A stretch of 43,501 bases of DNA, taken from the IMG/VR virus record IMGVR_UViG_2547132420_000011; one strand, written 5' to 3'. The stretch comes from a virus (Duplodnaviria > Heunggongvirae > Uroviricota > Caudoviricetes). This document shows positions 469-24,418 of this stretch, one piece after another. The notes under the pieces were generated by a model. It did no database searches. It saw only the letters and a list, made by a program, of their open reading frames with translations, and was not told the DNA's origin. Both the position numbers and the translations under genes were made by a program. Numbering within the stretch: the first letter of the stretch is position 1; each line of letters begins with the position of its first letter.

Positions 469-476
469 TCTCTGAA

Positions 477-499: not shown

Positions 500-544
500 A
501 CACTAGCAAAGCAATATCAACATTTTTCAGCTGTATTTATTTCG

Positions 545-1663: not shown

Positions 1664-1901
1664 GAGTTAAAATCTCCTTCAGTGCATCATCATCGCCAGT
1701 ATGAATTTCCGGCGCAATTCCCGTTTCACCAGGTCCAACAAATACTGCCCGGCGATCTATCAGCCAACGCCCACGAATTTTTTGTGGTCTTGGAACGATG
1801 TATCCTAGTTTTCCGTATTTCACCAGGGTAGTGTTTGTTATTGGGAGACTGAACCGTTTTGGTTTCCACTCATCGAGCGTTATCAGGTACTGTTCGCTCA
1901 T
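1632..1901 (-). CDS. Excisionase-like small DNA-binding protein (xis position)
   Basis: ORF 1632..1910; ATG at 1901 (MSEQYLITLDEW...) is preceded by GGAG; sits immediately upstream of and overlapping int; call is by position and size only. Confidence 0.5.
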   Translation of the reverse strand: MSEQYLITLDEWKPKRFSLPITNTTLVKYGKLGYIVPRPQKIRGRWLIDRRAVFVGPGETGIAPEIHTGDDDALKEILTHVTEATKKQH

Positions 1902-1962
1902 GGCTATCACTCCGGAACGCGCCAGTTGCAGAATACCAACGACAACTGGCGACGGTTGAACA

Positions 1963-4434: not shown

Positions 4435-4514
4435 GTTGTTTTAACCTCATTACAGATTTAAGGGTGAACAAATCCCTGCCATTGCTGGCATATAAAAATG
4501 AAACCGGATATTAA

Positions 4515-4718
4515 TTACGGTGCTGTTTTAAGTCCTGCCGGGATTTCGTTATTATCCATGTGAATAACTTTATCGACCGGATAACAGTTACCGGGAATTT
4601 TCTGTTCCGCTGCGGCAGCCATGCATTCTTTCATTGAACCGTAAATGTCAATAACCATGTCAACAGGCTCACCAGTATTAAGAAAAACAGTCAGAGTGAG
4701 GGCAATAGTAGTATTCAT
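4515..4718 (-). CDS. Small prophage early protein, unknown function
   Basis: ORF 4515..4772; internal ATG at 4718 (MNTTIAL...) preceded by AGGA; ATGA start/stop overlap with the upstream gene. Confidence 0.45.
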   Translation of the reverse strand: MNTTIALTLTVFLNTGEPVDMVIDIYGSMKECMAAAAEQKIPGNCYPVDKVIHMDNNEIPAGLKTAP

Positions 4719-4903
4719 TGCCAGTATCCTTTTTGCATCGGGCGTAAACGTGCCAGCATTGAAAGAATGCATATTTTATTTAATAGCTCCCGTTCGTATT
4801 TTCTCTTATTAATGGCATCTTCAGTAAATACAGGGTTACTGATTCTGACACCAATTTCAAAACAACCTTCAGACGTATTGACGTTTGGTAATAACGTTTC
4901 CAT
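4715..4903 (-). CDS. Small prophage early protein, unknown function (kil-like position)
   Basis: ORF 4715..4999; ATG at 4903 (METLLPN...) preceded by GAGGA; first gene of the leftward operon; 62 aa. Confidence 0.4.
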   Translation of the reverse strand: METLLPNVNTSEGCFEIGVRISNPVFTEDAINKRKYERELLNKICILSMLARLRPMQKGYWQ

Positions 4904-4920
4904 TATCGCGTCCTCAACAA

Positions 4921-5082
4921 TGAATTTTGTGATGCGGTGCCTGGTGCCTCCAGGTGACGTTAACCAGTTAATAATTAACGCCGGATACAGAGAACCCACC
5001 CATAAGAACCAATACGGAAGTCAACTGGTCTTTTTAACTGTTCCGCGTGCGCTGAGCCGCATTCACCGCATCACAAAATTCA
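4921..5082. repeat. 19-bp perfect inverted repeat (TGAATTTTGTGATGCGGTG, 4921-4939 and 5064-5082) flanking a 124-bp spacer
   Basis: Read directly from the sequence; the arms are exact reverse complements; lies in the divergent intergenic region upstream of the leftward early operon. Confidence 0.7.
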
Positions 5083-5470
5083 CTTTAAAAGGGGCGGGTA
5101 TCATGGGAAAAACAAAACGGATACCCGCCAAAAGGTAATCAACATGGGTTGTTGCAGCGGGGTTGTCACTCAGGCGTATGGTCAACCTGACAACCCGGTG
5201 GACATTTGCGAGGAACGGAGAACCCCCGCCATACTTACCGCCGCGCCATTTCGCGGAGTGCCACAACCGGAAGCGCACGGTCGACGAAAATTTAACGACA
5301 GGCTATCTATGAACCAACAACTTCGCCGTGCGCTTTCGCGTTATGCCCTGACTTTTCAGGGAGATATCCTTTCAGTAAACTGTCAGTGCCGGATGCTCAC
5401 CCGTGTCCGGCGCACGCACTCCACCTCACCCGTGGAGAACTCCTTAATTACTAACCCTCAGGAGGATGAA

Positions 5471-5746
5471 ATGGGGTTTGATGTCAATGAAACTCTTAAC
5501 TCTCTTATACGGAAAATTAATGATTTTGATAAAACACTACAGCATGCTGCGGCGCGTAGTGATATAACATTGTTAGCAATTTCATACCTTGCATCTGCCA
5601 TGAATAAAGATGAAACGGTACGAAAGAATCTCGTTGATTATATCGACTCGCTTCAGCCGGGCACTTTCAACCCTGAGAGCTTCAATCATGAGAAAGAGCA
5701 TGTTAAATCTGTAATTAATTCTCTTGTTTTGAATCAAAAGAATTGA
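5471..5746 (+). CDS. Hypothetical protein, 91 aa (sieB-equivalent position)
   Basis: ATG at 5471 directly preceded by GGAGG (5461-5465); the long upstream in-frame ORF (5144-5470) has Cys/Arg-rich non-protein-like composition; convergent with and overlapping the 3' end of the 5715..6056 gene by 32 nt. Confidence 0.45.
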   Translation: MGFDVNETLNSLIRKINDFDKTLQHAAARSDITLLAISYLASAMNKDETVRKNLVDYIDSLQPGTFNPESFNHEKEHVKSVINSLVLNQKN

Positions 5747-6056
5747 TGCTTCTTGTTACGAAGCAATTTTCAAGGGGTTCTATCCGAATCCCTTTCTTTT
5801 CCATTAACAAGCCAAACCCCTTATTAATGATGTCCATTAATTCCAGGAAGTATTTTTTATGTAAATCCTGGTTATCAGAGAGTTGCTTCTCTTCGTACAG
5901 ACCGATAAAGGCACGACGCACGTTACCGGATATATTATCGATGGTTTCTTTTTCTACGGTACTCAGGTCAAGAGTCGCCAATTGAGAATGAACTATATTC
6001 GCTGCCATTTCCTGGAATGGCATTGGTAAATCTTTAAATTCCATCGTCAACCTCAT
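5715..6056 (-). CDS. Hypothetical protein, 113 aa, translationally coupled to upstream DUF1391-like gene
   Basis: ATG at 6056 overlaps the TGA stop of the upstream gene (ATGA); alternative ATG at 6044 with GAGG; balanced amino-acid composition. Confidence 0.5.
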   Translation of the reverse strand: MRLTMEFKDLPMPFQEMAANIVHSQLATLDLSTVEKETIDNISGNVRRAFIGLYEEKQLSDNQDLHKKYFLELMDIINKGFGLLMEKKGIRIEPLENCFVTRSINSFDSKQEN

Positions 6057-6208
6057 CAGTCAGTATTTCTGGCTAACCAGCGACGCGCGCCAGCTTCGGT
6101 TTTAAACGTTTTGCTTTTGGTATACGTCATCGCCGTGAACGTGCCGTCTTGGTTTGGAAACACGCCGTATACCAGAGACTCGTTGTTGCCAAGATCGATA
6201 GTATCCAT
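6056..6208 (-). CDS. Small prophage protein, DUF1391-like (YdaF/YdfA-like, from memory)
   Basis: ORF 6056..6286; ATG at 6208 (MDTIDLGNNESLVYGVFPNQDGTFTAMTYTKSKTFK...) preceded by GAGG; 50 aa; downstream of the repressor on the same strand. Confidence 0.5.
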   Translation of the reverse strand: MDTIDLGNNESLVYGVFPNQDGTFTAMTYTKSKTFKTEAGARRWLARNTD

Positions 6209-6497
6209 GTTGACCTCATTTCCCCTTAACGCCGGGGTAGCGGAACAAAAACCTGCTGCATAGTTAAAGTTGAACCCTGCCGTCATGTTCTTACGCCTCG
6301 GGCTGGCTACTTAACCCCTGACCACTGCCTGGTAACTCGAAGTATTGCCCTGCATTCTGTAGGATGGGGTGAGGGAATGAATGAAGTTTAGAAAAACGAA
6401 CTTTTCAGGTCAATGTTTTTTTATCAAAACATTTTAAGCAGGCAGCTGTTAAGCCATCACCACGATGGCATACAGTTAATCAAATAGATGAGGTTGG

Positions 6498-7136
6498 TTA
6501 AATATCTTGTTGAATTTTAAAGCATACGCCCAATATGCAAGATAGATCATCCAGCATAATTGAAGGGTAGCGAGGATTCGTGGGGACTAAAAGAATATCC
6601 GGCCCTTCTATCTCCAGTTTACGAATGACAGGTGTTGTGGTCCCTTTGGGTAAGGCAAGGACAATATTTCCTGGTTGTACGGTTCGATCGGGATCAACAA
6701 AAACTGTTGAACCATTTGGGATGGAAACTCCCCCACCAGATGTTGACATACTGTCACTCTCTAGAACAACTGCAAAGGTATTGACCGGGATTTCTCCGAC
6801 AAGCTGCACACAAGAGGTTATTGAGGAATTTTTCATATAATCACTCCAGCTTGCTGCCTGCTGAAGTGATAGTAGCGGAACCGTTTTTATCGGCGGTAAA
6901 GATAGATCAAGCGAATCACCTGTATTTAACTCTCCTCCATTAAGAAGCCAATTTTCGTTTACTTTCAATATTTTTGCCAGTGAACTTATGTAACGCGAGG
7001 ACGGCGCTCCTCCACCGTTCATCCATTGACTTACGGAGCCTTTTGATGCGCCAGTGCCATTGACAAGGTCTTTGCCTTTCAGGTTTAGCGCATGCATACG
7101 TTGGGTTATGCGTTCAGATATAGTTTGCTTGCTCAT
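6498..7136 (-). CDS. cI-like prophage repressor (HTH plus S24 LexA-type peptidase domain)
   Basis: 212 aa; N-terminal HTH region (LKGKDLVNGTGASKGSVSQWMNG), C-terminal S24-like region with Ser (ESDSM) and Lys; divergent from the cro-like gene across an operator region. Confidence 0.85.
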   Translation of the reverse strand: MSKQTISERITQRMHALNLKGKDLVNGTGASKGSVSQWMNGGGAPSSRYISSLAKILKVNENWLLNGGELNTGDSLDLSLPPIKTVPLLSLQQAASWSDYMKNSSITSCVQLVGEIPVNTFAVVLESDSMSTSGGGVSIPNGSTVFVDPDRTVQPGNIVLALPKGTTTPVIRKLEIEGPDILLVPTNPRYPSIMLDDLSCILGVCFKIQQDI

Positions 7137-7227
7137 GTTTTGATTTTAAAACACAGATGGTTTTGTTTCTTGACTTTCTTTGGTTTTGATTATTAAACTT
7201 TTGACGTTCAGTTTTATGGAGCGACTC
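7137..7227. promoter_or_regulatory. Divergent immunity promoter/operator region (OR/PR/PRM analogue)
   Basis: 91-bp AT-rich intergenic region between divergent repressor and cro-like genes; repeated TTGA(C/T)TTT and GGTTTTG motifs. Confidence 0.5.
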
Positions 7228-7458
7228 ATGAAAAAATCAGAAGTATTAGGCTATTTTGGCGGAGTTGTTAAAACAGCCGCAGCTCTTGGAACGTCAAAAA
7301 CCACAGTCAGCATGTGGGGGGAAGAGGTTCCGTGGAAATGGGCGTTGCTAATTCAGGCAGTCACTGCCGGGGCGCTCAAATATGAGTTACACATACCGAC
7401 GGTTGTCATTCCCGGTTCTGATCATAATCCGCCTTCTAACCAAGGGGGGGATTCATGA
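7228..7458 (+). CDS. Cro-like HTH regulator
   Basis: ATG at 7228 preceded by GGAG; 76 aa; HTH-like segment VVKTAAALGTSKTTVSMW; stop overlaps the next gene start (ATGA). Confidence 0.7.
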   Translation: MKKSEVLGYFGGVVKTAAALGTSKTTVSMWGEEVPWKWALLIQAVTAGALKYELHIPTVVIPGSDHNPPSNQGGDS

Positions 7459-7880
7459 AAATCAAGCATGAACACATCCGCATGGCGATGAATGCCTGGG
7501 CGCATCCGGACGGCGAAAAAGTACCGGCTGCGAAAATTACCAAAGCGTATTTCGAGCTGGGAATGACGTTCCCGGAACTGTATGACGACAGCCATCCGGA
7601 AGCCCTGGCTCGCAATACCCAGAAAATTTTCCGCTGGGTAGAGAAAGACACCCCTGATGCAGTTGAAAAAATTCAGGCGTTGTTACCAGCGATCGAAAAG
7701 GCAATGCCACCTTTGCTGGTGGCCAGAATGCGCAGCCACAGTTCAGCTTATTTTCGGGAGCTGGTGGAGACGCGGGAGCGACTGGTGAGAGACGCTGATG
7801 ATTTTGTCGCAGTGGCAATCGCCGGTTTCAATCAGATGAACCGTGGTGGCCCGGCAGGAAATGCTGTGGCAGTACATTGA
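7455..7880 (+). CDS. YdaT-like protein (CII-like regulator position)
   Basis: 141 aa, translationally coupled to cro-like gene; size and position match YdaT of Rac-type prophages (from memory). Confidence 0.55.
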   Translation: MKIKHEHIRMAMNAWAHPDGEKVPAAKITKAYFELGMTFPELYDDSHPEALARNTQKIFRWVEKDTPDAVEKIQALLPAIEKAMPPLLVARMRSHSSAYFRELVETRERLVRDADDFVAVAIAGFNQMNRGGPAGNAVAVH

Positions 7881-9819: not shown

Positions 9820-11823
9820 ATGATTATGAGTGAAAATGATACAACCCCAAAGAAGTCTACAAGCCAGATTAACAAAGCGGTATTCTTTACATCTGCTTTG
9901 CTAATTTTCCTTCTTGTCGCCTTTGCCGCCGTATTCCCGGATGTCGCCGACAAAAATTTTAAACTACTTCAGCAACAAATCTTCACGAATGCCAGCTGGT
10001 TCTACATACTTGCTGTGGCCCTGATTTTACTGAGCGTCACGTTCCTTGGACTCTCACGTTACGGTGATATAAAGCTGGGCCCAGACCATGCGCAGCCTGA
10101 TTTCAGCTACCACTCCTGGTTCGCGATGCTTTTTTCGGCAGGGATGGGGATCGGCCTGATGTTCTTTGGCGTTGCCGAACCTGTGATGCATTATCTTTCG
10201 CCACCTGTCGGCACTCCAGAGACCGTTGCGGCAGCGAAGGAAGCCATGCGCCTGACGTTCTTCCACTGGGGTCTGCACGCATGGGCAATTTATGCCATCG
10301 TGGCGCTGATTCTGGCCTTTTTCAGTTACCGTCACGGTCTGCCTTTAACGCTGCGTTCTGCGCTCTATCCCATTATCGGCGATCGCATTTACGGGCCTAT
10401 AGGCCACGCGGTTGATATCTTCGCCGTGATAGGCACTGTCTTTGGCGTTGCAACATCGCTGGGTTACGGTGTATTGCAGGTGAATGCCGGTTTGAACCAT
10501 CTTTTCGGCGTGCCCATCAATGAAACGGTACAGGTCATTTTGATCGTGGTCATCACGGGGTTAGCGACGATTTCGGTGGTGTCCGGCCTGGACAAGGGAA
10601 TACGCATCCTGTCTGAGCTTAATCTGGGCCTGGCGGTGTTGCTCCTGGCGCTGGTCTTGTGCCTGGGTCCCACTGTGCTTCTGCTGAAGTCATTTGTGGA
10701 AAATACGGGTGGTTATCTGTCGGAACTGGTGAGTAAAACGTTCAACCTTTACGCGTATGAACCCAAGTCGAGCAACTGGCTGGGGGGCTGGACATTATTA
10801 TACTGGGGATGGTGGCTTTCATGGTCGCCGTTTGTAGGTATGTTCATTGCACGCGTTTCCCGCGGCAGGACAATTCGTGAGTTCGTGACTGGCGTGTTGT
10901 TTGTTCCCGCCGGCTTTACGCTCATGTGGATGACGGTGTTTGGAAACAGCGCCATCTATCTCATCATGAACCAGGGCGCCACTGACCTCGCCAATACCGT
11001 TCAGCAGGATGTTGCGCTTGCCCTGTTTAATTTCCTGGAGCATTTCCCGTTCTCTTCCGTGCTGTCATTCATTGCAATGGCGATGGTCATCGTCTTCTTT
11101 GTAACGTCTGCTGATTCGGGGGCAATGGTTGTGGATACTCTGGCATCAGGTGGGGTGGCAAACACGCCCGTCTGGCAGCGAATTTTCTGGGCATCGCTCA
11201 TGGGCGTTGTTGCTATTGCCCTGCTGATCGCAGGGGGGCTGAGTGCGTTGCAAACCGTAACGATAGCGAGTGCATTGCCCTTCTCAGTTATCTTATTAAT
11301 ATCCATATACGGACTGTTAAAAGCCCTGCGTCGGGATTTGACCAAGCGTGAAAGCCTTAGCATGGCGACTATTGCTCCTACGGCTGCACGTAACCCAATT
11401 CCCTGGCAGAGAAGGTTACGCAATATCGCGTATTTGCCGAAGCGCTCTCTTGTGAAACGTTTTATGGACGACATTATCCACCCCGCCATGACGCTGGTTC
11501 AGGAGGAACTTAACAAGCAGGGAACGATAAGCCACATCAGTGACGCCGCCGAGGATCGTATTCGCCTTGAAGTCGATTTGGGCAACGAGCTGAATTATAT
11601 ATATGAAGTGAGGCTTCGCGGGTATAACTCACCGACCTTCGCGCTCGCTGCGCTGGATAATGATGAGCAGCAGAGTGAACAACATCGATATTATCGCGCT
11701 GAAGTCTATCTCAAAGAGGGCGGCCAAAATTATGATGTAATGGGCTGGAATCAGGAACAGCTGATTAATGACATACTGGACCAGTACGAAAAACACCTGC
11801 ACTTCCTGCATCTGGTTCGTTAA
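9820..11823 (+). CDS. BCCT-family transporter, BetT-like (choline/betaine/carnitine)
   Basis: 667 aa, multiple TM helices; motifs GIGLMFFGVAEP and WTLLYWGWWLSWSPFVGMFIARVSRGRTIREF typical of BCCT transporters; hydrophilic C-terminal tail as in BetT; ATG at 9826 is an alternative start. Confidence 0.85.
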   Translation: MIMSENDTTPKKSTSQINKAVFFTSALLIFLLVAFAAVFPDVADKNFKLLQQQIFTNASWFYILAVALILLSVTFLGLSRYGDIKLGPDHAQPDFSYHSWFAMLFSAGMGIGLMFFGVAEPVMHYLSPPVGTPETVAAAKEAMRLTFFHWGLHAWAIYAIVALILAFFSYRHGLPLTLRSALYPIIGDRIYGPIGHAVDIFAVIGTVFGVATSLGYGVLQVNAGLNHLFGVPINETVQVILIVVITGLATISVVSGLDKGIRILSELNLGLAVLLLALVLCLGPTVLLLKSFVENTGGYLSELVSKTFNLYAYEPKSSNWLGGWTLLYWGWWLSWSPFVGMFIARVSRGRTIREFVTGVLFVPAGFTLMWMTVFGNSAIYLIMNQGATDLANTVQQDVALALFNFLEHFPFSSVLSFIAMAMVIVFFVTSADSGAMVVDTLASGGVANTPVWQRIFWASLMGVVAIALLIAGGLSALQTVTIASALPFSVILLISIYGLLKALRRDLTKRESLSMATIAPTAARNPIPWQRRLRNIAYLPKRSLVKRFMDDIIHPAMTLVQEELNKQGTISHISDAAEDRIRLEVDLGNELNYIYEVRLRGYNSPTFALAALDNDEQQSEQHRYYRAEVYLKEGGQNYDVMGWNQEQLINDILDQYEKHLHFLHLVR

Positions 11824-11886
11824 CAGCAACATGCCGCCACAGAGGCGGCATTTATTTATCCCGGCTGCAATATGAGGGAATGCAGA

Positions 11887-13164
11887 ATGATTTCACGCTG
11901 GAAATGGATGCTGAAGCAGACATTTAAAAAACTATGGTTCAGGGCAACGTTATTCGCAATTGTCGCAATAATAACGGCCCTTTTATCAATTCTTTTTAAA
12001 TCAATGATACCTGAGTCGGTTTCCGTGAAGGTTGGTGCGGAAGCAGTCGATAACATTCTGAACATACTGGCATCGAGTATGCTGGCAGTGACCACATTTT
12101 CGCTGAGCATCATGGTCACAGCCTACGGTTCAGCCACTACTAATGTGACTCCCAGAGCTACTCGTTTAGTTGTTGAAGACGTCACCACACAAAATGTACT
12201 GGCCACCTTCATCGGTTCTTTTCTCTTCAGTCTGGTAGGGATTATTGCCCTCAATATGGGAGCTTATGGAGAAAGGGGGAGAGTCATTTTATTCATTGTA
12301 ACACTGGTTGTCATTGCCTTAATCCTCATCACATTGCTTCGCTGGATACAGCATTTGACCTCTCTGGGGAGGGTTGGTGAGACAACGGCAAAAGTAGAAC
12401 AGGCGGCCATCGAAACATTTATTGCGAGAGCAAGAAATCCCTGTCTCGGCGGATATCCATGGCTTGAGAACAATGAACAGCCGAAAGGAACGGTTGCAGT
12501 TTATCCGAAAAAGATTGGCTATATTGAATATGTTGATATGGTGAAACTCAGCAAGCTGCTGACCAATGATCCCCGTCATGTATACCTCGTGGCGCAGCCG
12601 GGCAGTTTCATACATCCGTCCACGCCAGTTTTGTACCTGAGTCAGGGCCAGGAGTCATCAATCAGCACCGATTTACTTGAGACGATTATTGTCTCGGATG
12701 TACGTTCATTTGCTCAGGACCCCCGATTTTGTCTTAGCGTCATGGCCGAAATAGCCTGCCGAGCCCTTTCCCCCGCAGTGAACGATCCTGGAACCGCCAT
12801 TGATGTCATTGGCAGAGGTGTACGTATACTTTCCGCTTACGCGCAGAATAAATCTGATGAAATAGAAGTGAAATATCCTTCTGTACATGTTGCACCACTT
12901 CAGAATAACGATCTACTTGAAGACTTTTTCTCACCTGTTGCGCGCGATGGTGCCAGTATGAGGGAAATTCAGATAAGGGTACTTAAAGGACTGTCGATGC
13001 TGAGTAAGGGTTGGCCTGGAATTTTTGCTGAAGCCGCACAAACCCTAGCATTTGAAACATTAGAGCATGCTACTCGTGCTGACCATATAGATTCTGACAG
13101 ATATCTAATAAAATCAATTTATTATAATTTATTTAGTGGCGAAGATTCTAATAAAAAACCATAG
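11887..13164 (+). CDS. Membrane protein with N-terminal TM helices and soluble C-terminal domain (DUF2254-like, from memory)
   Basis: ORF 11872..13164; ATG at 11887 has a better GAGGGA spacing; four predicted TM segments in the first 170 aa. Confidence 0.65.
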   Translation: MISRWKWMLKQTFKKLWFRATLFAIVAIITALLSILFKSMIPESVSVKVGAEAVDNILNILASSMLAVTTFSLSIMVTAYGSATTNVTPRATRLVVEDVTTQNVLATFIGSFLFSLVGIIALNMGAYGERGRVILFIVTLVVIALILITLLRWIQHLTSLGRVGETTAKVEQAAIETFIARARNPCLGGYPWLENNEQPKGTVAVYPKKIGYIEYVDMVKLSKLLTNDPRHVYLVAQPGSFIHPSTPVLYLSQGQESSISTDLLETIIVSDVRSFAQDPRFCLSVMAEIACRALSPAVNDPGTAIDVIGRGVRILSAYAQNKSDEIEVKYPSVHVAPLQNNDLLEDFFSPVARDGASMREIQIRVLKGLSMLSKGWPGIFAEAAQTLAFETLEHATRADHIDSDRYLIKSIYYNLFSGEDSNKKP

Positions 13165-13294
13165 TTGCGGAGCAAGCGATACGGTTGTTGGCAAGTCAAG
13201 GGCAAAGCATTCGCGTGAGAGTGGGCGTCTGCTTTGTGCCAGAAGCGGACATACGTAACTTATGATACGCATCGCCAATCATCCGTTTCAAACA

Positions 13295-14176
13295 TCAACG
13301 CGGAAACGTTTTAAGAATGTAATCCCGAACATAGGCGGTTCGGCTGTTATTAGCCGTCCTTTTGTTCCAGACCAGATAAAGATGATTAGTCGGAGCGAGG
13401 TCTGCAGGTGTCACTGAAATCAGGCGACCACTTTTCAGGTCATTGTCACAGTGATAATCCGGCAGCACTGTCCACCCGTGGCCGTCACAGACCAAGTCGC
13501 GGATAATACGTAAATCCGGAATGGTGAATGTAGCCTGCATCTCAGGGGCTCTCTGAAACATGGAGGCCCAGAGCGCTCTAATCAGTGGCAACTCTTCGTC
13601 ATAAGCAATCAGCGGTAATGAGGCAAGCGTTTCAGCACCAGGTTCTGATCCGATGATCTCTGACATGGCGGGAGCATGAACAAGGAGCATGCGTTCAGTC
13701 AGTAGATGTGCATAGCCGTACAGACGGTCATCAGGCATAGATGCGGTAACAGCGAGATCGGCGCTCCCGTCATGCAAAAGGGAATAAATACGTTGCTTAT
13801 TGCCGGTATGAAAGCGTAGGCGATACCCCTCCTTCATTAGTGGAGCCATTACTGTCCCAAGCCGGGAATGAATAAAATCTGGCGGTCCTGCCAGATTAAT
13901 TGTTCCCCCACGTACAGAGCCTGACCGGAAAGAGGACAGCTTTTCTTCCAGACCATCAATGAAGGGTGAAACTGAGCGGGCAAGCTCATCCGCAGCTTCG
14001 GTTGCCGTCACGCCTCTGGCCTGCCTGATAAACAGACGCTTACCAACCAGAGTCTCAAGAGACTGGATATGCTGTGACGCCGCGGGCTGAGTGATGCCCA
14101 GTAGTTCTGCCGCCTTTGAAAAGGAGCCAGAGCGATAGGCCTCAAGAAACGTTCGCAGATGGCTCAGATGGCTCAT
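13295..14176 (-). CDS. LysR-family transcriptional regulator
   Basis: 293 aa; N-terminal HTH (SFSKAAELLGITQPAASQHIQSLE), LysR substrate-binding-like C-terminal domain; start overlaps the upstream ChaC-like gene stop. Confidence 0.85.
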   Translation of the reverse strand: MSHLSHLRTFLEAYRSGSFSKAAELLGITQPAASQHIQSLETLVGKRLFIRQARGVTATEAADELARSVSPFIDGLEEKLSSFRSGSVRGGTINLAGPPDFIHSRLGTVMAPLMKEGYRLRFHTGNKQRIYSLLHDGSADLAVTASMPDDRLYGYAHLLTERMLLVHAPAMSEIIGSEPGAETLASLPLIAYDEELPLIRALWASMFQRAPEMQATFTIPDLRIIRDLVCDGHGWTVLPDYHCDNDLKSGRLISVTPADLAPTNHLYLVWNKRTANNSRTAYVRDYILKTFPR

Positions 14177-14865
14177 AGTGAAGCGCCTCGCTGATGAAGT
14201 TTATCGTTACAGGGAGCCTCATGCAGAGCAAGGGCCAGTTCACTCACGTAATCATCCCGTATTCCCAACGCACCCAGAGTGGCCTGCAGTTTCCATACAT
14301 AATCTGCATTCGTGCCAATGTCTCCACGGGCAGATGCGATGCTCAACGCTACGGTCGCTGTAAGATTGTCCTGTTCATAATGCGGATGCAGTCTGTCTGA
14401 TACGAAAGCCAGCGCCTGAATTTCCTTACCGTTTCCTAGCGAAACGTCTGCCCAGACCGGACGGTAAAGACCGGTTATCATCTCGCGCGTCCAGACAATT
14501 TCCAGCTCATTAATAAGAGTCGATTCCGGCAGTCTGAACGCAATACCTTCGGTAATTCCACCTTCGTCGAGCGATAACATCCTGCCGGGGACATCAGGAG
14601 TCGCTCGTCCGGATATCAAACGAATGCAGAAACTGCGCTGCCATCCTTTCAGACGGGCCCGTTGCATTTCTTCAATCGCCAGCACGGGATTCCACATCAA
14701 TGACCCGTAGGCAAATATCCAGACAGGAGCACCCGTCGGGCGCTCCTCCAGAGTAGAGTTCATTGATGCGCGTATTTTTTCAGCGTCCCAGAGCATATTC
14801 GCCGGGAGCAGCGCTTCATGCACCCTGACAAATGTGCCATTAAGCATATTTTCACGGGTAAGCAT
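14173..14865 (-). CDS. ChaC-like gamma-glutamylcyclotransferase
   Basis: 230 aa; motif FAYGSLMWNP characteristic of the ChaC family. Confidence 0.8.
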   Translation of the reverse strand: MLTRENMLNGTFVRVHEALLPANMLWDAEKIRASMNSTLEERPTGAPVWIFAYGSLMWNPVLAIEEMQRARLKGWQRSFCIRLISGRATPDVPGRMLSLDEGGITEGIAFRLPESTLINELEIVWTREMITGLYRPVWADVSLGNGKEIQALAFVSDRLHPHYEQDNLTATVALSIASARGDIGTNADYVWKLQATLGALGIRDDYVSELALALHEAPCNDKLHQRGASL

Positions 14866-14876
14866 ATAACCTCCCT

Positions 14877-16076
14877 TTACTGGCCTACGATTTTAACCTG
14901 TTGAAATTTACGACTGTGGCTGCGACGGATTTGTGCAAGCAGCAACAGCAGGCCGAGCAGAGAAACAATCGCACCGCTGATACCGGTATACACGATACCG
15001 GCGTGGCTTATAGTAATGCTGCCCAGTACTGATCCCAGCGCTATACCTGAGTTGAAGCCCGCAATATTCAGGCCGGCAGCAACACCATGCGCATGAGGAG
15101 CATGTTGCTCAGCGACACCAATCAGACGGGCCTGCAGTGCCGGCACTGCGGCAAATGTCACCATACCCAGTAGCGCAACCAGAATGCCCATGCTCACCGG
15201 TGAGGATGACAGCAGCCACATACCAAGCACGACAACAACAATGCCGCTAATGATGAGTATATTGGCACGATTAACCCCCATGCTGTCGGTAAGTTTCCCA
15301 CCAAGAATATTACCTACCGCAGCTGTAATACCGTAAACCAGCATAAACAGACTCACCGTTGCTCCGGTAACCCCTGTCACCTGCGTCAGAATAGGTGCGA
15401 TAAAGGTGTAATCCGTAAACGAGCCTGCATACGCCAGCACCGTAACCAGCGCGCCGGCCAGCAACTTACGGTTAAACAGCATGCCGATATTCTGCATTGC
15501 TGAGTCACTATGTTCACCGGGCACGCTGCGTACGGGATCTTTCATACCGAACAACAGTCCAAGGAATCCGAACGCGCCAAAAGCGGCAATAGCGCCGAGA
15601 ACTGGACGCCATGAGACCACCCCCCCCAACCATGTACTCAGCGGTACGCCGATTGCCATCGCCAGAGTAAAGCCACCAAATACCACAGCCACCGCTCTGC
15701 CTGCTTTACCCGGTCCAGCAAGACGAGCTGCGGTACTGGATGCCGCAGCCAGAAACAGGCCGTGTCCCAGACCAGCAATGAACCGCGCTAACAGGAGCTG
15801 AGGTAATGTGGCTGCAAACGCGGCCGCCAGACTACCGGCAGTAAACACAACGGCAGTTGTAAGCATTACATTTTTCCGGCTCCAGCTTGCTGTCAGCGCA
15901 GACAGTACGGGTGCCGCGAACGTTGCCCCCAGTGCATAGGTTGTAACCGCTGCCCCGGTCTGCTCCACACCCACACACAACCCCTGAGCCATAACGTCTG
16001 TCAGCCCAATGGGGACAAATTCCGCGAGTCCGAGCGCAAAGGCACTGATAGTAAACACATAAATAACAAATGGCAT
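14877..16076 (-). CDS. MFS transporter
   Basis: 399 aa, about 12 TM helices, Gly/Ala-rich hydrophobic composition typical of the major facilitator superfamily. Confidence 0.85.
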   Translation of the reverse strand: MPFVIYVFTISAFALGLAEFVPIGLTDVMAQGLCVGVEQTGAAVTTYALGATFAAPVLSALTASWSRKNVMLTTAVVFTAGSLAAAFAATLPQLLLARFIAGLGHGLFLAAASSTAARLAGPGKAGRAVAVVFGGFTLAMAIGVPLSTWLGGVVSWRPVLGAIAAFGAFGFLGLLFGMKDPVRSVPGEHSDSAMQNIGMLFNRKLLAGALVTVLAYAGSFTDYTFIAPILTQVTGVTGATVSLFMLVYGITAAVGNILGGKLTDSMGVNRANILIISGIVVVVLGMWLLSSSPVSMGILVALLGMVTFAAVPALQARLIGVAEQHAPHAHGVAAGLNIAGFNSGIALGSVLGSITISHAGIVYTGISGAIVSLLGLLLLLAQIRRSHSRKFQQVKIVGQ

Positions 16077-18551: not shown

Positions 18552-18841
18552 TGGTGAATTTACGTAAAGCGGCTAAAGGCCAGATGTGCCAGATCAGAAT
18601 CCCTGGCTACTGCAATCACAATCCCGAAACCTCTGTGCTGGCGCATTACAGGCTGGCGGGGACGTGCGGAACAGCGACAAAACCACACGATATGCAGGCG
18701 GCGATAGCCTGTAGCTCATGCCACGATCTAATCGACGGGCGGGTAAAAACCAGCGATTACACCAAAGAAGAATTGCGCCTGATGCATGCTGAAGGGGTTT
18801 TTCGCACACAAGAAATCTGGAGAAAGAAAGGTCATTTATGA
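18551..18841 (+). CDS. ybcO: YbcO-like protein (DUF1364, putative nuclease with Cys/His metal site)
   Basis: 96 aa; motifs CQIRIPGYCNHNPETSVLAH and ACSSCHD resemble DLP12 YbcO (from memory); translationally coupled to flanking genes. Confidence 0.7.
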   Translation: MVNLRKAAKGQMCQIRIPGYCNHNPETSVLAHYRLAGTCGTATKPHDMQAAIACSSCHDLIDGRVKTSDYTKEELRLMHAEGVFRTQEIWRKKGHL

Positions 18842-19380
18842 TTTACCCAACGAATACAGGAAAAAGCGGAGAACACCTTCGCCTCACCACGCTGGAAAGT
18901 GTCTGGATTCAGGGAAAACTACGTATGTGGGGGCGCTGGTCGTATATTGGCGGTGGCAGGTCAGGGAATATGTTCAATCAGTTGTTGGCATCCAAAAAAC
19001 TGACGAAAACAGCCATTAATGAAGCCCTGCGTAGAATGAAAAAAGCGGGAATAGAGAAAGCTGAGCTGGAAGCGTTTTTGCGAGAGATGATCAACGGCAA
19101 GCAAAAGAGCTGGCTGGCGCATTGTACTGATGCAGAGGCGTTATGTATTGATCGAGTCATAAGTGAGGTGCTGGCAGAGCATCCAGGATTGATTTGCATT
19201 CTCCGGCAACGCTATGAAGGGCGGGGGATGACTAAGCGCAAAATGGCTGAATTGCTAAATGATGGACACCCAGAGTGGTGTTTTAGCACATGCGAAAAAC
19301 GGATTGCTAATTGGTTAGCTGTTGCTGAGTATGCCCTATATATTCCCATGCGTGAATCATTTGCTGAGAAAATGGCTTGA
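18838..19380 (+). CDS. Putative late-gene antiterminator (Q-like), called by position
   Basis: 180 aa; last nin-region gene, followed 80 nt downstream by a strong intrinsic terminator and then the late/lysis genes. Confidence 0.55.
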   Translation: MIYPTNTGKSGEHLRLTTLESVWIQGKLRMWGRWSYIGGGRSGNMFNQLLASKKLTKTAINEALRRMKKAGIEKAELEAFLREMINGKQKSWLAHCTDAEALCIDRVISEVLAEHPGLICILRQRYEGRGMTKRKMAELLNDGHPEWCFSTCEKRIANWLAVAEYALYIPMRESFAEKMA

Positions 19381-19487: not shown

Positions 19488-19807
19488 ACGTCAGGAAAGC
19501 AGGGGAGAATGCTGCTAGTTGGGCAACTGGTCTTTCTGCTCCAAATTATAACAGAGACCAGTTATAGTTTCGGTGCTGTGTTTTTTTTACAATATTGTGA
19601 TAACACATTGCTGGCGGGAGTTTTGATATTTCTTGGCAGGGGCTGATGATGCGTTATCCTGATGTCGTCAACTCATATAAAATGAGATGAGAGATCATTG
19701 CAGGGTGGTTTGTAATTCGCTGTTTAGCGGGACAATATGTTGTCTGATACAAGACACCCGACGCCTCAGATTACTATAATAAAGACGAAGCATCCTTTGT
19801 ATTGACC

Positions 19808-19833
19808 AACCGCCTGTTTAGGCGGTTCTTTTT
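19808..19833 (+). terminator. Rho-independent terminator
   Basis: Stem AACCGCC (19808-19814), loop TGTTTA, stem GGCGGTT (19821-19827), then CTTTTT. Confidence 0.5.
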
Positions 19834-20423
19834 GGACTGGTTTATTGTATGCCAAATGATTATTAAAAAGGTTGTGTTAATAACAAAATCCGAAATAATA
19901 TGCCTGCATATTTTTATCTTGCTTATATTCTGCATATTGTGCATAGCAGGCTCATCCCTGCAATCAAAACTGTATGATGAGTATTTTTTTTTTCCTTTTT
20001 TCCAGTCATCTGATGATGACCTGCTTCTTTTTAATCCGGATCGACATCAGTTTTTTAAGATAATTCCTGCGAGTTATATGCATAAATACCACAAACTCCG
20101 CATTTTATGTGGTTGGGAGTTGCCGGGCGCGCAGTGAGTTTGCTAAGAAAACTCCTGCATGGTGAATCCCCCTGTGCGGTGGGGTGATACCATTAACCTT
20201 TTCTGTCGCCGACAGGTATCACGAACATTTTGTTCACCGGGAGGCACCCGGCACCATGCACTTCAATAGATTCTCTCCACATTATGGATATTCTTTCAGA
20301 ATATCCCACGCAGACTTTGTGTAAATGTTAACAAATGTGCGTTTTATTTGATCTGATTCGCTGTTTGAGCGTCCAAAACAACGGTATATATAATCCTTTA
20401 CTATATGACATATGTGAGGAAAA

Positions 20424-20852
20424 ATGGGTTTTCGTAGCGCATCAATTCTTACGTTGATTATTAGTGGGATTATTATCGGGTGCACTGATGCTGTATCGAC
20501 AAATTATCATGACCGTACATCATATTACTCCGATAAAGCAATAGAGACACAGTATGTGAGTTCATCTGAACGTACTTCTGATGTTAGTGAGGATATCCGT
20601 CTGTATGCCCATCAAATCAAGAGCGCCATCGAAAAACAGTTCGGGGATGCGAGTAAGTATTCAGGAAAAGAGTGTACACTGAGAATGCATATGGCCCCGA
20701 ATGGCCTTCTACTGGAGGTTAAAAGAGAAAGTGGAGACCTCGATTTATGTCGTGAAGCGATGAATGCGATAAAGAATGCTGATATACCTGCCCCCCCTTC
20801 GCCGGAAGTATATAAAGTATTTCAAAATGGGGTGCTGGATTTTAAACCCTGA
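20424..20852 (+). CDS. Lipoprotein with TolA C-terminal (domain III)-like domain, moron
   Basis: 142 aa; signal peptide and lipobox IIGC; C-terminal segment IRLYAHQIKSAIEKQFGDASKYSGKECTLRMHMAPNGLLLEVKRESGDLDLCREAMNAIKNADIPAPPSPEVYKVFQNGVLDFKP resembles E. coli TolA C-terminus from memory; GAGG upstream. Confidence 0.7.
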   Translation: MGFRSASILTLIISGIIIGCTDAVSTNYHDRTSYYSDKAIETQYVSSSERTSDVSEDIRLYAHQIKSAIEKQFGDASKYSGKECTLRMHMAPNGLLLEVKRESGDLDLCREAMNAIKNADIPAPPSPEVYKVFQNGVLDFKP

Positions 20853-21002
20853 TATTTATTGTTTTGTAATAAACGGTTTCGGCTTAGGTTTGTTCTGACA
20901 CAGCTACGGCACTGAGCTAAATTTAGCGGATAGTCAGCTCTGAGCCAGTGGCGGACGTAACAACTACTATTGCTGAGATTTTAATGGATTGAGGAGCAAG
21001 AA

Positions 21003-21398
21003 GTGGGATTAAAGAAAATCGTTATGTTGACTTTTTGGGTCGGTTTTGTTGCGGGATGCACACCTTTACACCCTTCAGATTGCCACAAAACTACTGCTAC
21101 AGGTAGTTGCAGTTCAGGACGCTGGGATGATCAGGATGAATGGGGGGCGCAAGCGCGGGGAATCAGAGCTGCAATTAATGCCAAACTTGATGAGCCGCAT
21201 AACTGGAAAGGGAAAAAATGCAGGTTGCATATGGAATTCTCTCAGGATGGCACGGCGTTAAAAATATCTACCAGTAACGGTGATAAAGCCTATTGCGAAG
21301 CGATAAAGTCCGCAGCTCATAAAGCCAAATTTCCGGCCTTCAACAATCCGGAAGTCTACAGAGATTTTCAGAAATCTGGCTTTGACATGCGAGGTTAG
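21003..21398 (+). CDS. Lipoprotein paralog with divergent TolA-III-like C-terminal domain
   Basis: 131 aa; GTG start preceded by GAGGAG; lipobox VAGC; shares motifs with the neighbouring lipoprotein (GKKCRLHMEF..DGTALKI, two Cys, PEVYRDFQ). Confidence 0.65.
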   Translation: MGLKKIVMLTFWVGFVAGCTPLHPSDCHKTTATGSCSSGRWDDQDEWGAQARGIRAAINAKLDEPHNWKGKKCRLHMEFSQDGTALKISTSNGDKAYCEAIKSAAHKAKFPAFNNPEVYRDFQKSGFDMRG

Positions 21399-21523
21399 CT
21401 CTTCAATTACTATATCTCATTCATAGCAAACTGACAGATTTGATGATGTTCTATATACGAAACCTGTGATGTCAAGTCTGAGCTAATACAAATAAACATA
21501 ATATCAGAGAAATACATTTTATT

Positions 21524-21545
21524 AGCTCGCTACGGCGAGCTTTTT
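21524..21545 (+). terminator. Rho-independent terminator after lipoprotein moron pair
   Basis: Stem AGCTCGC (21524-21530), loop TACG, stem GCGAGCT (21535-21541), T-run to 21545. Confidence 0.6.
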
Positions 21546-21649
21546 ATATTGCATCGTCTCCAGCATATATATCAATTAAGGCTCTGATTGATGTGTCTGA
21601 AAGCCTACACATAATAACTATGCCATCCGTTCCGTGCGGAGGTGAGGCT

Positions 21650-21865
21650 ATGAAATCCATGGACAAAATTTCAACAGGCATTGCCTACGGCACCTCCGCA
21701 GGCAGTGCTGGCTACTGGTTTTTACAGTTGCTCGATAGAGTAACTCCGTCACAGTGGGCTGCAATCGGTGTGCTGGGTAGTCTGGTATTTGGCCTGCTGA
21801 CGTACCTGACAAACCTTTATTTCAAGATTAAAGAAGATAAGCGCAAGGCTGCGAGAGGTGAATAA
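21650..21865 (+). CDS. S: Holin, phage 21 S-like pinholin with dual start
   Basis: ORF 21593..21865; ATG at 21650 preceded by GGAGGTGAGG; [26 protein letters not shown]... matches S21 from memory; second in-frame ATG at 21659; 71 aa. Confidence 0.85.
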
Positions 21866-22362
21866 TGCCTCCATCATTACGAAAAGTCGTTGCTGCTGCT
21901 ATTGGTGGCGGAGCAATTGCTATAGCATCAGTGTTAATCACTGGCCCAAGTGGTAACGATGGTCTGGAAGGTGTCAGCTACATACCATACAAAGATATTG
22001 TTGGTGTATGGACTGTATGTCACGGGCATACAGGAAAAGACATCATGCTCGGTAAAACGTATACCAAAGCAGAATGCAAAACACTCTTGAATAAAGACCT
22101 TGCCACGGTCGCCAGACAAATTAACCCGTACATCAAAGTCGATATACCGGAAACAACGCGCGGCGCTCTTTACTCATTCGTTTACAACGTGGGTGCTGGC
22201 AATTTCAGAACATCGACGCTTCTTCGCAAAATAAACCAGGGCGATATCAAAGGCGCATGTGATCAGCTACGTCGCTGGACATATGCTGGCGGTAAGCAAT
22301 GGAAAGGTCTCATGACTCGTCGTGAGATTGAGCGTGAAATCTGTTTGTGGGGTCAGCAATGA
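21865..22362 (+). CDS. R: SAR endolysin (lysozyme, phage 21 R-like)
   Basis: 165 aa; N-terminal Gly/Ala-rich signal-arrest-release segment [20 protein letters not shown] followed by lysozyme-like domain; start overlaps holin stop (TAATG). Confidence 0.85.
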
Positions 22363-22823
22363 ACAGAGTAACCGCGATTATCTCCGCTCTGGTTATCTGC
22401 ATCGTCGTCTGCCTGTCATGGGGTGTTAATCATTACCGTGATAACGCCATCGCCTACAAAGAACAGCGCGACAAAAATGCCAGAGAACTGAAGCTGGCGA
22501 ACGCGGCAATTACTGACATGCAGATGCGTCAGCGTGATGTTGCTGCGCTCGATGCAAAATACACGAAGGAGTTAGCTGATGCGAAAGCTGAAAATGATGT
22601 TCTGCGTGATGATGTTGCCGCTGGTCGTCGTCGGTTGCACATCAAAGCAGTCTGTCAGTCAGTGCGTGAAGCCACCACCGCCTCCGGCGTGGATAATGCA
22701 GCCTCCCCCCGACTGGCAGACACCGCTGAACGGGATTATTTCACCCTCCGGGAACGACTGGTAATGATGCAGGCCCAACTTGAAGGTGCTCAGCAATACA
22801 TAACCGAGCAGTGTTTAAAGTAA
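22359..22823 (+). CDS. Rz: i-spanin Rz
   Basis: ORF 22347..22823; ATG at 22359 overlaps the endolysin stop; N-terminal TM segment then coiled-coil-rich periplasmic domain. Confidence 0.8.
22579..22764 (+). CDS. Rz1: o-spanin Rz1 (lipoprotein embedded in Rz in the +1 frame)
   Basis: 61 aa; signal peptide with lipobox VVGC; Pro-rich mature part ([15 protein letters not shown]); entirely within Rz; AGGAG upstream. Confidence 0.75.
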
Positions 22824-22960
22824 AATCTTAACTACAATATGATTCATTTTGATGATTGTTTCATAAGAAACAGTGAAGTAAGATCTAAGAGGAGTTAAAT
22901 TTTATACAGTATAATCATAATATTGCAGCAAGGTGGTTATAATTGAAAGAATATTTAGAT

Positions 22961-24418
22961 ATGAATACATCTCATGTAAGAGTTGTTACTCATATGTGTG
23001 GGTTCCTGGTTTGGCTCTATAGTCTTTCAATGTTGCCACCAATGGTTGTAGCATTGTTTTATAAAGAAAAAAGCCTGTTCGTTTTCTTTATAACTTTCGT
23101 TATATTTTTTTGCATTGGTGGCGGAGCGTGGTATACAACTAAGAAATCTGGCATTCAATTACGTACCCGTGATGGGTTTATTATAATTGTAATGTTTTGG
23201 ATTTTGTTTTCTGTTATTAGTGCATTCCCTTTATGGATTGACTCAGAACTTAATTTAACGTTCATTGATGCTCTGTTTGAAGGGGTTTCTGGAATAACAA
23301 CAACAGGAGCAACTGTAATTGATGATGTTAGTTCATTACCTCGGGCATATTTGTACTATCGGTCACAGTTAAATTTTATAGGTGGTTTAGGAGTTATTGT
23401 TCTGGCGGTTGCTGTATTGCCATTATTGGGTATTGGTGGTGCAAAGCTTTATCAGTCAGAAATGCCGGGGCCATTTAAGGATGACAAACTCACTCCCCGC
23501 CTGGCCGATACGTCACGGACACTGTGGATAACTTATTCTTTATTAGGTATTGCTTGTATTGTCTGTTATAGACTTGCAGGAATGCCTTTGTTTGATGCTA
23601 TTTGTCACGGGATTTCCACAGTTTCGCTTGGTGGTTTCTCAACTCATAGCGAGAGTATCGGATATTTTAATAACTATTTGGTTGAGCTGGTGGCTGGTTC
23701 TTTTTCCCTGCTATCGGCTTTCAACTTCACTCTTTGGTATATTGTTATTAGCAGGAAAACGATAAAACCTTTAATCAGAGATATTGAACTTCGTTTCTTT
23801 CTGTTAATAGCCTTAGGGGTGATCATTGTTACCTCTTTCCAGGTCTGGCATATAGGTATGTATGACTTGCATGGAAGTTTTATTCATTCGTTTTTTCTTG
23901 CCAGCTCCATGCTCACTGATAATGGTTTAGCTACGCAGGATTATGCAAGTTGGCCCACGCACACGATAGTGTTTTTGCTGTTGTCAAGTTTCTTTGGGGG
24001 ATGTATAGGTTCAACTTGTGGTGGAATTAAGTCACTTCGATTTCTTATACTTTTCAAACAAAGCAAACACGAGATAAATCAGCTTTCTCATCCCAGAGCG
24101 TTGTTGAGTGTAAATGTAGGAGGGAAGATAGTTACAGATCGTGTAATGAGGTCTGTATGGAGTTTCTTTTTTCTTTATACTCTCTTCACGGTGTTTTTTA
24201 TACTGGTGTTAAATGGTATGGGATATGATTTTCTTACATCATTTGCAACAGTGGCTGCATGTATTAATAATATGGGATTAGGTTTTGGGGCTACTGCATC
24301 GTCATTCGGAGTGCTTAATGACATTGCAAAATGTTTAATGTGCATAGCTATGATTCTTGGTCGCCTTGAAATTTATCCTGTTATTATATTGTTTTCAGGT
24401 TTTTTTTGGCGCTCCTAA
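22961..24418 (+). CDS. trkG: Potassium uptake protein TrkG (TrkH/TrkG family)
   Basis: ORF 22943..24418; ATG at 22961 gives 485 aa starting MNTSHVRVVTHMCGFLVWLYSL, matching E. coli Rac-prophage TrkG from memory; AT-rich gene. Confidence 0.9.
   Translation: MNTSHVRVVTHMCGFLVWLYSLSMLPPMVVALFYKEKSLFVFFITFVIFFCIGGGAWYTTKKSGIQLRTRDGFIIIVMFWILFSVISAFPLWIDSELNLTFIDALFEGVSGITTTGATVIDDVSSLPRAYLYYRSQLNFIGGLGVIVLAVAVLPLLGIGGAKLYQSEMPGPFKDDKLTPRLADTSRTLWITYSLLGIACIVCYRLAGMPLFDAICHGISTVSLGGFSTHSESIGYFNNYLVELVAGSFSLLSAFNFTLWYIVISRKTIKPLIRDIELRFFLLIALGVIIVTSFQVWHIGMYDLHGSFIHSFFLASSMLTDNGLATQDYASWPTHTIVFLLLSSFFGGCIGSTCGGIKSLRFLILFKQSKHEINQLSHPRALLSVNVGGKIVTDRVMRSVWSFFFLYTLFTVFFILVLNGMGYDFLTSFATVAACINNMGLGFGATASSFGVLNDIAKCLMCIAMILGRLEIYPVIILFSGFFWRS

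Follow-up and report, generated by a model that had tools for sequence, protein, structure and literature searches.

Introduction

The C-terminal domain III of TolA (TolAIII) is the shared periplasmic entry point of group A colicins and filamentous phages, and it is essential for outer-membrane integrity, so that cells cannot simply mutate it away. Several small outer-membrane lipoproteins that exclude invaders are known from prophages, phages and plasmids, including Cor, Llp of phage T5, TraT of the F plasmid and Bor of phage lambda. Most of these are accessory proteins made in the carrier state, with Llp being made early in T5 infection, and Cor and Llp act by inactivating a receptor in the outer membrane (FhuA); they do not copy a periplasmic import hub. 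Here we examined a stretch of 43,501 nucleotides (IMG/VR record IMGVR_UViG_2547132420_000011, referred to below as the window), a Rac-type lambdoid prophage of Escherichia coli in which two neighbouring plus-strand open reading frames, ORF1 and ORF2, encode predicted lipoproteins that end in TolAIII-like domains. The likeness of this pair to Cor, Llp, TraT and Bor would be one of function only; no homology to any of the four was found, and Pfam and PHROG scans returned nothing but TolA/TonB C-terminal domains and phrog_5772, a family of unknown function.

Two described systems come closer. The first is engineered periplasmic TolAIII, a fusion of a signal peptide to domain III (Levengood-Freyermuth et al. 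1993; Wan & Baneyx 1998, both as cited in PMC6195910), which places free TolAIII in the periplasm in competition with native TolA. The secreted domain disturbs the envelope and makes E. coli leak periplasmic proteins, an effect that has been put to use (PMC6195910). It is an artificial construct, a soluble fragment of a host protein made in excess, whereas the genes in the window are natural and diverged, belong to a mobile element, and encode products with a predicted lipid tether. The second is the superinfection immunity conferred by g3p (pIII) of filamentous phages, in which the periplasmic N1 domain of g3p sequesters TolA and yields tolerance to colicin A together with a 4-log drop in infection by phage fd (PMC10424213). 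The same interaction between TolAIII and its ligands would be blocked by the window pair; g3p is a ligand mimic that sits on the receptor, whereas ORF1 and ORF2 would be the mirror image, receptor mimics that sit on the ligand. Secreted TolAIII is also said, in work of Levengood-Freyermuth et al. from 1993, to give colicin tolerance.

On the comparisons set out below, we rate the pair as candidate envelope exclusion or tolerance factors that a mobile element has built from a captured host domain. The reading that we favour, with a probability of roughly 0.45, is that the two proteins are decoys that make their carrier tolerant to TolA-dependent colicins, to inoviruses, or to both. Database names already imply the domain assignment. 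The recognition of four points appears to be new: the proteins have the architecture of lipoproteins, ORF1 has been mis-annotated as a pseudogene, the family is spread over prophages, major plasmid families and chromosomes, and the pair is divided into a TolA-like copy (ORF1) and a diverged one (ORF2). Full-text searches of the literature returned no publication on these lipoproteins, which does not disprove that one exists.

Both proteins carry TolA domain III but are not TolA

Both proteins score above the curated cut-off of the Pfam family PF06519 (ORF1, 82.6 bits, E = 2.4e-23; ORF2, 54.6 bits, E = 1.3e-14; cut-off 25) and share its fold and disulfide pair. When compared by phmmer with the solved E. 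coli TolAIII structures, ORF1 matched at E = 5e-28, with its residues 55-142 aligned to TolA 334-421, and ORF2 matched at E = 5e-9. The domains were modelled by AlphaFold2 (AF2) with a predicted local distance difference test score (pLDDT) above 90 in both, and Foldseek placed a TolAIII structure at the top for each. For ORF1 this was 2x9a_B (root-mean-square deviation 0.6 Å, TM score 0.96, 59% identity) and for ORF2 it was 3qdp (1.1 Å, 0.92, approximately 31%). The cysteines C84/C109 of ORF1 and C73/C98 of ORF2 align with the C363/C388 disulfide pair of TolA.

The earlier note on this DNA, made from the letters alone, had described both C-terminal domains as TolA domain III-like, that of the first protein as a close parallel, and had noted that the two proteins share two cysteines and short motifs. 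Profile search and structure prediction both bear out the domain assignment for the two proteins, and the motifs are present as GKECTLRM and PEVYKVFQ in ORF1 and as GKKCRLHM and PEVYRDFQ in ORF2. The similarity to TolAIII is unambiguous and far beyond chance. It was noted that ORF1 and ORF2 share only 29% identity with one another, and that the ORF1 domain lies nearer to E. coli TolA (59%) than to any other lipoprotein relative (at most 52%).

ORF1 and ORF2 are not TolA, however. Set beside E. coli TolA domain III (approximately residues 334-421; PDB 1S62, 3QDP, 1TOL and 2X9A), the two have the fold and the disulfide in common, and ORF1 has the same terminal LDFKP strand. They lack the TolQR-binding transmembrane domain I and the helical domain II, in whose place stand a lipoprotein signal and a disordered tether of 29-34 residues. 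They lie outside any tolQ-tolR-tolA-tolB-pal cluster, between a phage Q-like gene and a holin gene. Scores against the NF007065 TolA equivalog, 107.8 bits for ORF1 and 53.7 bits for ORF2, fall below its cut-off of 213 and cover only profile positions 293-386 or 304-382 of 387; ORF1 does exceed the threshold of TIGR02794 (75.6 against 59.45), yet it spans only the last 98 positions of that profile (265-362 of 362). Since the predicted lipid would anchor the pair in the opposite, outer membrane from TolA, they would be unable to transduce the proton-motive force. Database names such as "cell envelope integrity protein TolA", "tolA family protein" and "tolA pseudogene, missing N-terminus" are profile-driven misnomers.

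Lipoprotein signals and translation starts

The earlier note had also described two adjacent plus-strand genes of 142 and 131 codons, each opening with a signal peptide and a lipobox, and both genes and both signals were recovered as described. ORF1 begins with MGFRSASILTLIISGIIIGC, followed by TD, with the lipobox IIGC ending at Cys20; ORF2 begins with MGLKKIVMLTFWVGFVAGC, followed by TP, with the lipobox VAGC ending at Cys19. Each signal has a positive n-region, a hydrophobic core of 12-14 residues and a lipobox that fits the pattern [LVI][ASTVI][GAS]C. Both mature proteins carry Thr at position +2, and under the +2 rule this predicts sorting to the outer membrane; the two are predicted, from these signals, to be lipidated and anchored in the outer membrane. 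Signal peptides aside, residues 1-50 of ORF1 (pLDDT below 50) and residues 1-37 of ORF2 are predicted by AF2 to be disordered.

Both genes have been partly obscured by annotation. RefSeq/PGAP labels ORF1 a tolA pseudogene with a missing N-terminus (positions 20293-20553 of the best-matching genome, L001), and the protein is therefore missing from those RefSeq proteomes. For ORF2 (L001 20725-21099), RefSeq/PGAP places the start at an internal ATG at position 21024 of the window, which gives a protein of 124 residues. We take the GTG start to be correct because a start at the RefSeq ATG would lose the charged n-region and lacks a ribosome-binding site, because GAGGAG lies six bases 5' of the GTG, and because homologues start with MGVKK at the GTG position.

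ORF1 and ORF2 differ in their contact surfaces

The two proteins are not equivalent, with ORF1 being a TolA-like copy and ORF2 a diverged one. TolA is contacted by g3p-N1, colicin N and TolB on helix alpha2 and strand beta3, with strand addition to beta3 in each case, and by colicin A at 375-LLDIKP-380 (PMC4339652). We mapped 31 contact residues onto E. coli TolA after Ridley & Lakey (PMC4339652). ORF1 keeps 20 of the 31, including 10 of the 14 in alpha2 and the beta3 residues L417, D418, F419, K420 and P421, which form its C-terminal LDFKP. ORF2 keeps 7/31, among them D418, as well as the disulfide, and it ends in GFDMRG in place of LDFKP. It was also noted that a C-terminus of the form xLDF[KR][PL] occurs in many other representatives of the family. 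The retention of beta3 and of most of alpha2 by ORF1 offers indirect support, at the level of residue identity, for the decoy reading.

Outside the fold, the two proteins follow opposite patterns. The tether is the most variable part of ORF1. The mature N-terminal segment of ORF2 is more conserved than the fold itself, with a mean top-residue frequency of 0.96 against 0.92 among 124 family sequences. Its family pattern, C[TA]PLHPSxCHKTTATGSCSSGRWDDQDEWG, contains two extra cysteines and a Trp-acidic-Trp motif (GRWDDQDEWG). The motif is reminiscent of TolB-binding epitopes of colicins; however, a phmmer search with the 35-mer that contains it, run against all PDB chains, gave no support and returned no colicin, its best match being DivIVA at E = 1.8.

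How a tethered TolA domain III could act

Under the decoy reading, each lipoprotein would be secreted and lipid-modified at the lipobox cysteine, so that a stand-alone copy of TolAIII would hang on its flexible tether in the periplasm beneath the outer membrane. This is where the translocation domains of group A colicins and the N1 domain of g3p first emerge, and where TolB-Pal is sited as well. A decoy against Tol-dependent colicins or phages, or a perturbation of Tol-Pal, had been suggested in the earlier note, and the evidence gathered here supports that suggestion indirectly. Having no anchor coupled to TolQR, the domain would bind the ligands of TolA and be unable to energise import, and we propose that its role would therefore be that of a dead-end decoy. 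ORF1 would present TolA-like surfaces, and ORF2 would have a shifted specificity together with the additional conserved disordered motif. Colicin N binds TolA with a dissociation constant of 1 µM, compared with 40 µM for TolB (PMC4339652); because the invaders bind more tightly than TolB, a modest dose of decoy could block entry at little cost to Tol-Pal. Ligand binding, expression in the lysogen and a protective phenotype are all steps that we infer for the pair.

The complex of TolA with g3p of phage IF1 (PDB 2x9a) was among the top structural matches. I and F pili are the receptors of TolA-dependent filamentous phages. That the family also occurs on conjugative plasmids of the IncI complex and of IncF, as described below, fits a role against such phages.

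The family extends over prophages, plasmids and chromosomes

At an identity of at least 99%, the pair was found in 773 of 5,426 complete E. coli genomes (14%), and each exact sequence occurs on at least 1000 contigs. IMG/VR contributed approximately 125 near-identical Rac-type contigs per gene and no new context. Among 50,697 GenBank phage records, only one, phage mEp460_ev081, carries the pair. The lone plasmid record with a match at this level, PLSDB NZ_CP141089.1, contains the full pair and is 4.94 Mb long; it is evidently a chromosome, and the match is therefore not to a plasmid.

The two types differ in host range. ORF1-type sequences formed 46 clusters, nearly all named E. coli, and do not extend beyond this species and such near relatives as Shigella. 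ORF2-type sequences formed 370 clusters across Citrobacter, Enterobacter, Klebsiella, Raoultella, Serratia, Leclercia, Pantoea, Kluyvera, Rouxiella and others. In an exhaustive search of 1.84 billion representatives, 130 clusters were recovered at 50% identity. Half of these (65) look full-length (110-170 residues); a lipobox was found in 49 of the 65, and none of the 49 has Asp at +2. There are therefore about 50 independent clusters of predicted lipoprotein-TolAIII with the same architecture. A profile search with 33 diverse family members found mainly Enterobacterales among the 8000 candidates to which it was limited. No TolAIII fold was found in the BFVD library of viral structures at E of 0.001 or below.

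ORF2-type genes, at 88% identity, are present on approximately 600 plasmids of E. coli and Shigella, and family genes are present on approximately 1.2% of sequenced plasmids, pO157 included. In all three conjugative IncI-complex plasmids sampled (IncI1/B/O or IncK2/Z; L003, L004 and L214, ~5995-6426), the gene lies about 70 bases 3' of a nikB-type relaxase gene, and on pO157 it has the hok/psiA leading region on one side and toxB on the other (L005, 5995-6426). The homology between plasmid and prophage copies of ORF2 is limited to the coding sequence, stop codon included, and the 30 bases 5' of it. A further set of approximately 294 plasmids, mostly from Klebsiella, carries a homologue of 35% identity by tblastn. 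The one example sampled, the pKpQIL-type IncFIB/IncFII conjugative plasmid NZ_CP036321.1 of K. pneumoniae (L213, 4217-5246; see also L206-L208), encodes a 144-residue lipoprotein-TolAIII protein that is 35% identical to ORF2 in the domain, has a lipobox region reading LLITAC followed by S, and ends in NAALDFRL; its gene adjoins one for a periplasmic thioredoxin-fold protein with a signal peptide.

The family also reaches chromosomal sites without phage genes, well beyond its prophage setting. An Enterobacter relative of ORF2 occupies a fixed chromosomal site without phage or mobile-element genes. Another chromosomal copy of the ORF2 type (source name Serratia marcescens; L012 and L013, 6001-8736) directly adjoins a GmrSD_N/HEPN gene pair, a neighbourhood that looks like a defence island. 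When all ORFs within 8 kb on either side were clustered for 31 genomic loci of the ORF2 family, no neighbour family was present at more than four, and no conserved partner gene was found. The ideas of an operon partner and of a toxin-immunity pair were rejected on this basis.

Selection on both families is purifying, and these are real genes. The ratio of non-synonymous to synonymous substitution rates (dN/dS) was 0.07-0.12 when ORF2 was compared with its plasmid, Enterobacter and other copies, and 0.27-0.39 among members of the ORF1 family. These values bear on the idea that the pair is non-functional debris of a captured tolA. The PGAP label of ORF1 as an incomplete tolA pseudogene would suit that idea, as would the scores of both proteins under the NF007065 cut-off. 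However, each ORF is intact, follows a Shine-Dalgarno sequence and opens with a signal peptide and lipobox, and dN/dS stays far below 1. The ORF1 sequence recurs unchanged on at least 1000 contigs, 773 complete genomes carry the pair, and about 50 independent clusters have this architecture. We consider debris a very improbable explanation.

The same data raise the alternative that the TolAIII scaffold has taken on a new target unrelated to Tol, above all in ORF2 and its chromosomal relatives. The domain would then act jointly with the conserved disordered N-terminal motif on some other periplasmic or outer-membrane target, for instance in envelope homeostasis, conjugation or exclusion. The few contact residues kept by ORF2, its GFDMRG terminus and the conservation of its 30 mature N-terminal residues above that of the fold all speak for such a change, as do the strong purifying selection, the fixed Enterobacter site, and the position inside the transfer region of IncI-complex plasmids directly after the relaxase gene. 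However, strand addition relies chiefly on the backbone (PMC4339652), and TolA-like binding is therefore compatible with diverged side chains. ORF2 retains D418 and the disulfide, ORF1 is clearly TolA-like, and no neighbour is conserved that would point to another pathway. A new, non-Tol function thus appears improbable to us, although it would apply to ORF2 more readily than to ORF1.

The pair occupies the slot between the late antiterminator and lysis genes

The features of the locus are collected in Table 1. From 5' to 3', the slot contains the Q-like gene, a non-coding kilobase, the STnc100 match, the sigma-70-like site, ORF1, a 150-bp spacer, ORF2, the terminator, and the genes for holin, endolysin, Rz and Rz1, followed by trkG. 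The placement of the pair between Q and lysis genes that the earlier note had suggested is thereby upheld, and so is the terminator behind it, a hairpin of AGCTCGC-tacg-GCGAGCT followed by TTTTTAT (-15.6 kcal/mol, z -2.9). Given the feature order, with the Q-like gene upstream and the lysis genes downstream, the pair lies within the region of the Q-modified late transcript. The terminator would halt any transcript starting upstream of it that is not antiterminated.

Table 1. Features of the ORF1-ORF2 locus and its flanks in the window. Positions are those of the window; residue ranges refer to the encoded protein.
Feature	Residues	Position	Strand	Remark
Q-like late antiterminator gene, DUF1133 / Phage_antitermQ		18838..19380	+	upstream edge of slot
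STnc100 (RF02076) prophage small RNA (sRNA) match		20127..20313	+	86.6 bits against a gathering score of 47
Sigma-70-like promoter candidate, TTGAGC-18-TATAAT		20365..20394	+	10/12 matches; 30 bases 5' of ORF1
Shine-Dalgarno GAGG of ORF1		20416..20419	+	four bases 5' of ATG
ORF1, predicted lipoprotein with TolA domain III	142 aa	20424..20852	+	ATG start
ORF1 signal peptide and lipobox	1-20	Cys20 codon 20481-20483	+	
ORF1 variable disordered tether	21-54			
ORF1 TolAIII domain	55-142	20586-20849	+	equals TolA 334-421
Shine-Dalgarno GAGGAG of ORF2		20991..20996	+	six bases 5' of GTG 21003
ORF2, predicted lipoprotein with diverged TolA domain III	131 aa	21003..21398	+	GTG start
ORF2 signal peptide and lipobox	1-19	Cys19 codon 21057-21059	+	
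ORF2 mature N-terminal segment, CTPLHPSDCHKTTATGSCSSGRWDDQDEWG	19-48	21057..21146	+	predicted disordered, pLDDT ~40
ORF2 TolAIII-like domain	49-131	21147-21395	+	
Intrinsic terminator after the pair, before holin		21524..21547	+	hairpin 21524-21541
Lysis cassette: holin (P21 S type), endolysin, Rz, embedded Rz1		21593..22823	+	downstream edge of slot

Two further suggestions of the earlier note were upheld in part. The region upstream of the pair was said to be AT-rich, and its GC content is indeed lower than that of the window, but only modestly so (40.4% against 47.3%). The arrangement was also said to be that of a moron. Insertion between conserved phage genes and a terminator of its own were both found; the third element, a promoter of its own, is represented by a single consensus-level match to sigma-70 that is absent upstream of the ORF1 variants. 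The DNA upstream of ORF1 could not be aligned with that of its variants of approximately 66% identity.

The STnc100 match, about 110 bases 5' of ORF1, is the sole Rfam match at gathering level in the window, and STnc100 accompanies the pair in phage mEp460_ev081 as well. It may represent an sRNA gene, a late-leader transcript or the 5' leader of the TolA-like mRNA. STnc100 has been related to PasD sRNAs in a 2026 preprint. A module common to the window (20233-21866) and to mEp460_ev081 (5934-7567) at 99% identity comprises the 3' part of STnc100, ORF1, ORF2 and the holin gene, and the phage shares nothing else with the window. This lone 1.6-kb block suggests that it moves through recombination between lambdoid genomes.

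The position of the pair also invites a different account, in which Q-antiterminated expression late in the lytic cycle would yield tethered TolAIII that captures the N-terminus of TolB, or another partner of TolA, blocks the release of Pal that TolA drives, and loosens the outer membrane. The purpose would be to aid lysis, vesiculation or the release of progeny, and on plasmids to loosen the envelope for transfer. The pair stands downstream of the Q-like gene and directly before the holin gene. Variants of ORF1 (65-74% identity) in other lambdoid prophages occupy the same slot behind a PF03589-type Q gene and two tRNA genes, which is the position of stx, and the sequence upstream of them is unrelated. 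The leakage caused by secreted TolAIII (PMC6195910) would agree with such an antagonist of Tol-Pal, and so would the full tol phenotype of TolA beta3 mutants that lose TolB binding (PMC4339652), given that beta3 is kept in ORF1. However, the prophage already has a complete holin-endolysin-spanin set, and a strong terminator stands between the pair and the holin gene. The affinity of TolB for TolA is weak (40 µM), and genes of the ORF2 type are also found away from lysis genes, on plasmids and at chromosomal sites, where constitutive damage to the envelope would be costly. We regard a late antagonist of Tol-Pal as rather unlikely.

Several other features of the window were noted. Downstream of the Q-like gene, positions 19751-19836 on the plus strand contain a promoter-like AAGACA-18-TATAAT (10/12) and, within approximately 30 bases, a strong hairpin of terminator type, AACCGCC-tgtt-TAGGCGGTT with a T run; this could be a late promoter with a tR' unit. 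The potassium transporter gene trkG (22943-24418, plus strand) lies between the lysis cassette and the terminase genes and is a second accessory insertion, typical of Rac. Positions 9820-16076, between the replication genes and hokD, hold non-phage cargo that encodes a BCCT transporter, a DUF2254 protein, a LysR regulator, a gamma-glutamylcyclotransferase and an MFS transporter, as annotated in the best-matching genome, where the corresponding stretch is 99.4% identical. Positions 1-7450 of the window differ from that genome.

Discussion

The favoured reading, that ORF1 and ORF2 are decoys which block entry through TolA, has to be weighed against a number of observations that count against it. 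The pair lies in the late-transcribed region from Q to lysis, in the slot that holds stx in Stx phages. Expression in the lysogen rests on the consensus match of the promoter candidate, which is not conserved in the ORF1 variants, and promoter matches in the region (11) were not above the expectation from shuffled sequence (7.4 ± 2.9). A decoy that binds TolB would be expected to give a costly, leaky phenotype of the tol kind. Diversifying selection on the contact helix alpha2 was not seen in the ORF1 family; variable sites were somewhat more frequent in alpha2 (11/19 compared with 23/69; odds ratio 2.75), but p was 0.065 and dN/dS in the helix was 0.1. With just 7/31 contact residues kept, a role as a decoy for TolA ligands is doubtful for ORF2 in particular, and its relatives at fixed chromosomal sites without phage or plasmid genes suit a housekeeping role equally well. 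Neither protein had a match in the PADLOC-DB v2 defence catalogue at E of 1 or below.

A broader form of the decoy reading would treat lipid-anchored TolAIII copies as a widespread and hitherto overlooked class of envelope-level defence, present on prophages, on IncI-complex and pKpQIL-type IncF plasmids, on pO157 and in some chromosomes. It would include ORF2 as a double mimic whose Trp-acidic-Trp motif would engage TolB in the manner of the TolB-binding epitopes of colicins. We put this forward tentatively and consider it doubtful in that full form.

The family is common and includes genes on resistance plasmids of the IncI complex, yet it has been largely hidden by annotation under the names TolA and tolA pseudogene and by a truncated start. 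Should the decoy reading be true, a tethered TolAIII on a mobile element would be a cheap block on invaders that leaves the Tol-Pal system of the host untouched, and the tolerance to group A colicins that occurs naturally in enterobacteria would be explained in part. Hosts of pilus-bearing plasmids would be protected, which would bear on the use of pilus-specific phages against resistance plasmids, and research on Tol-Pal would gain natural competitive inhibitors. If the pair instead weakens the envelope, it would be of relevance to the release of toxins, vesicles and phages.

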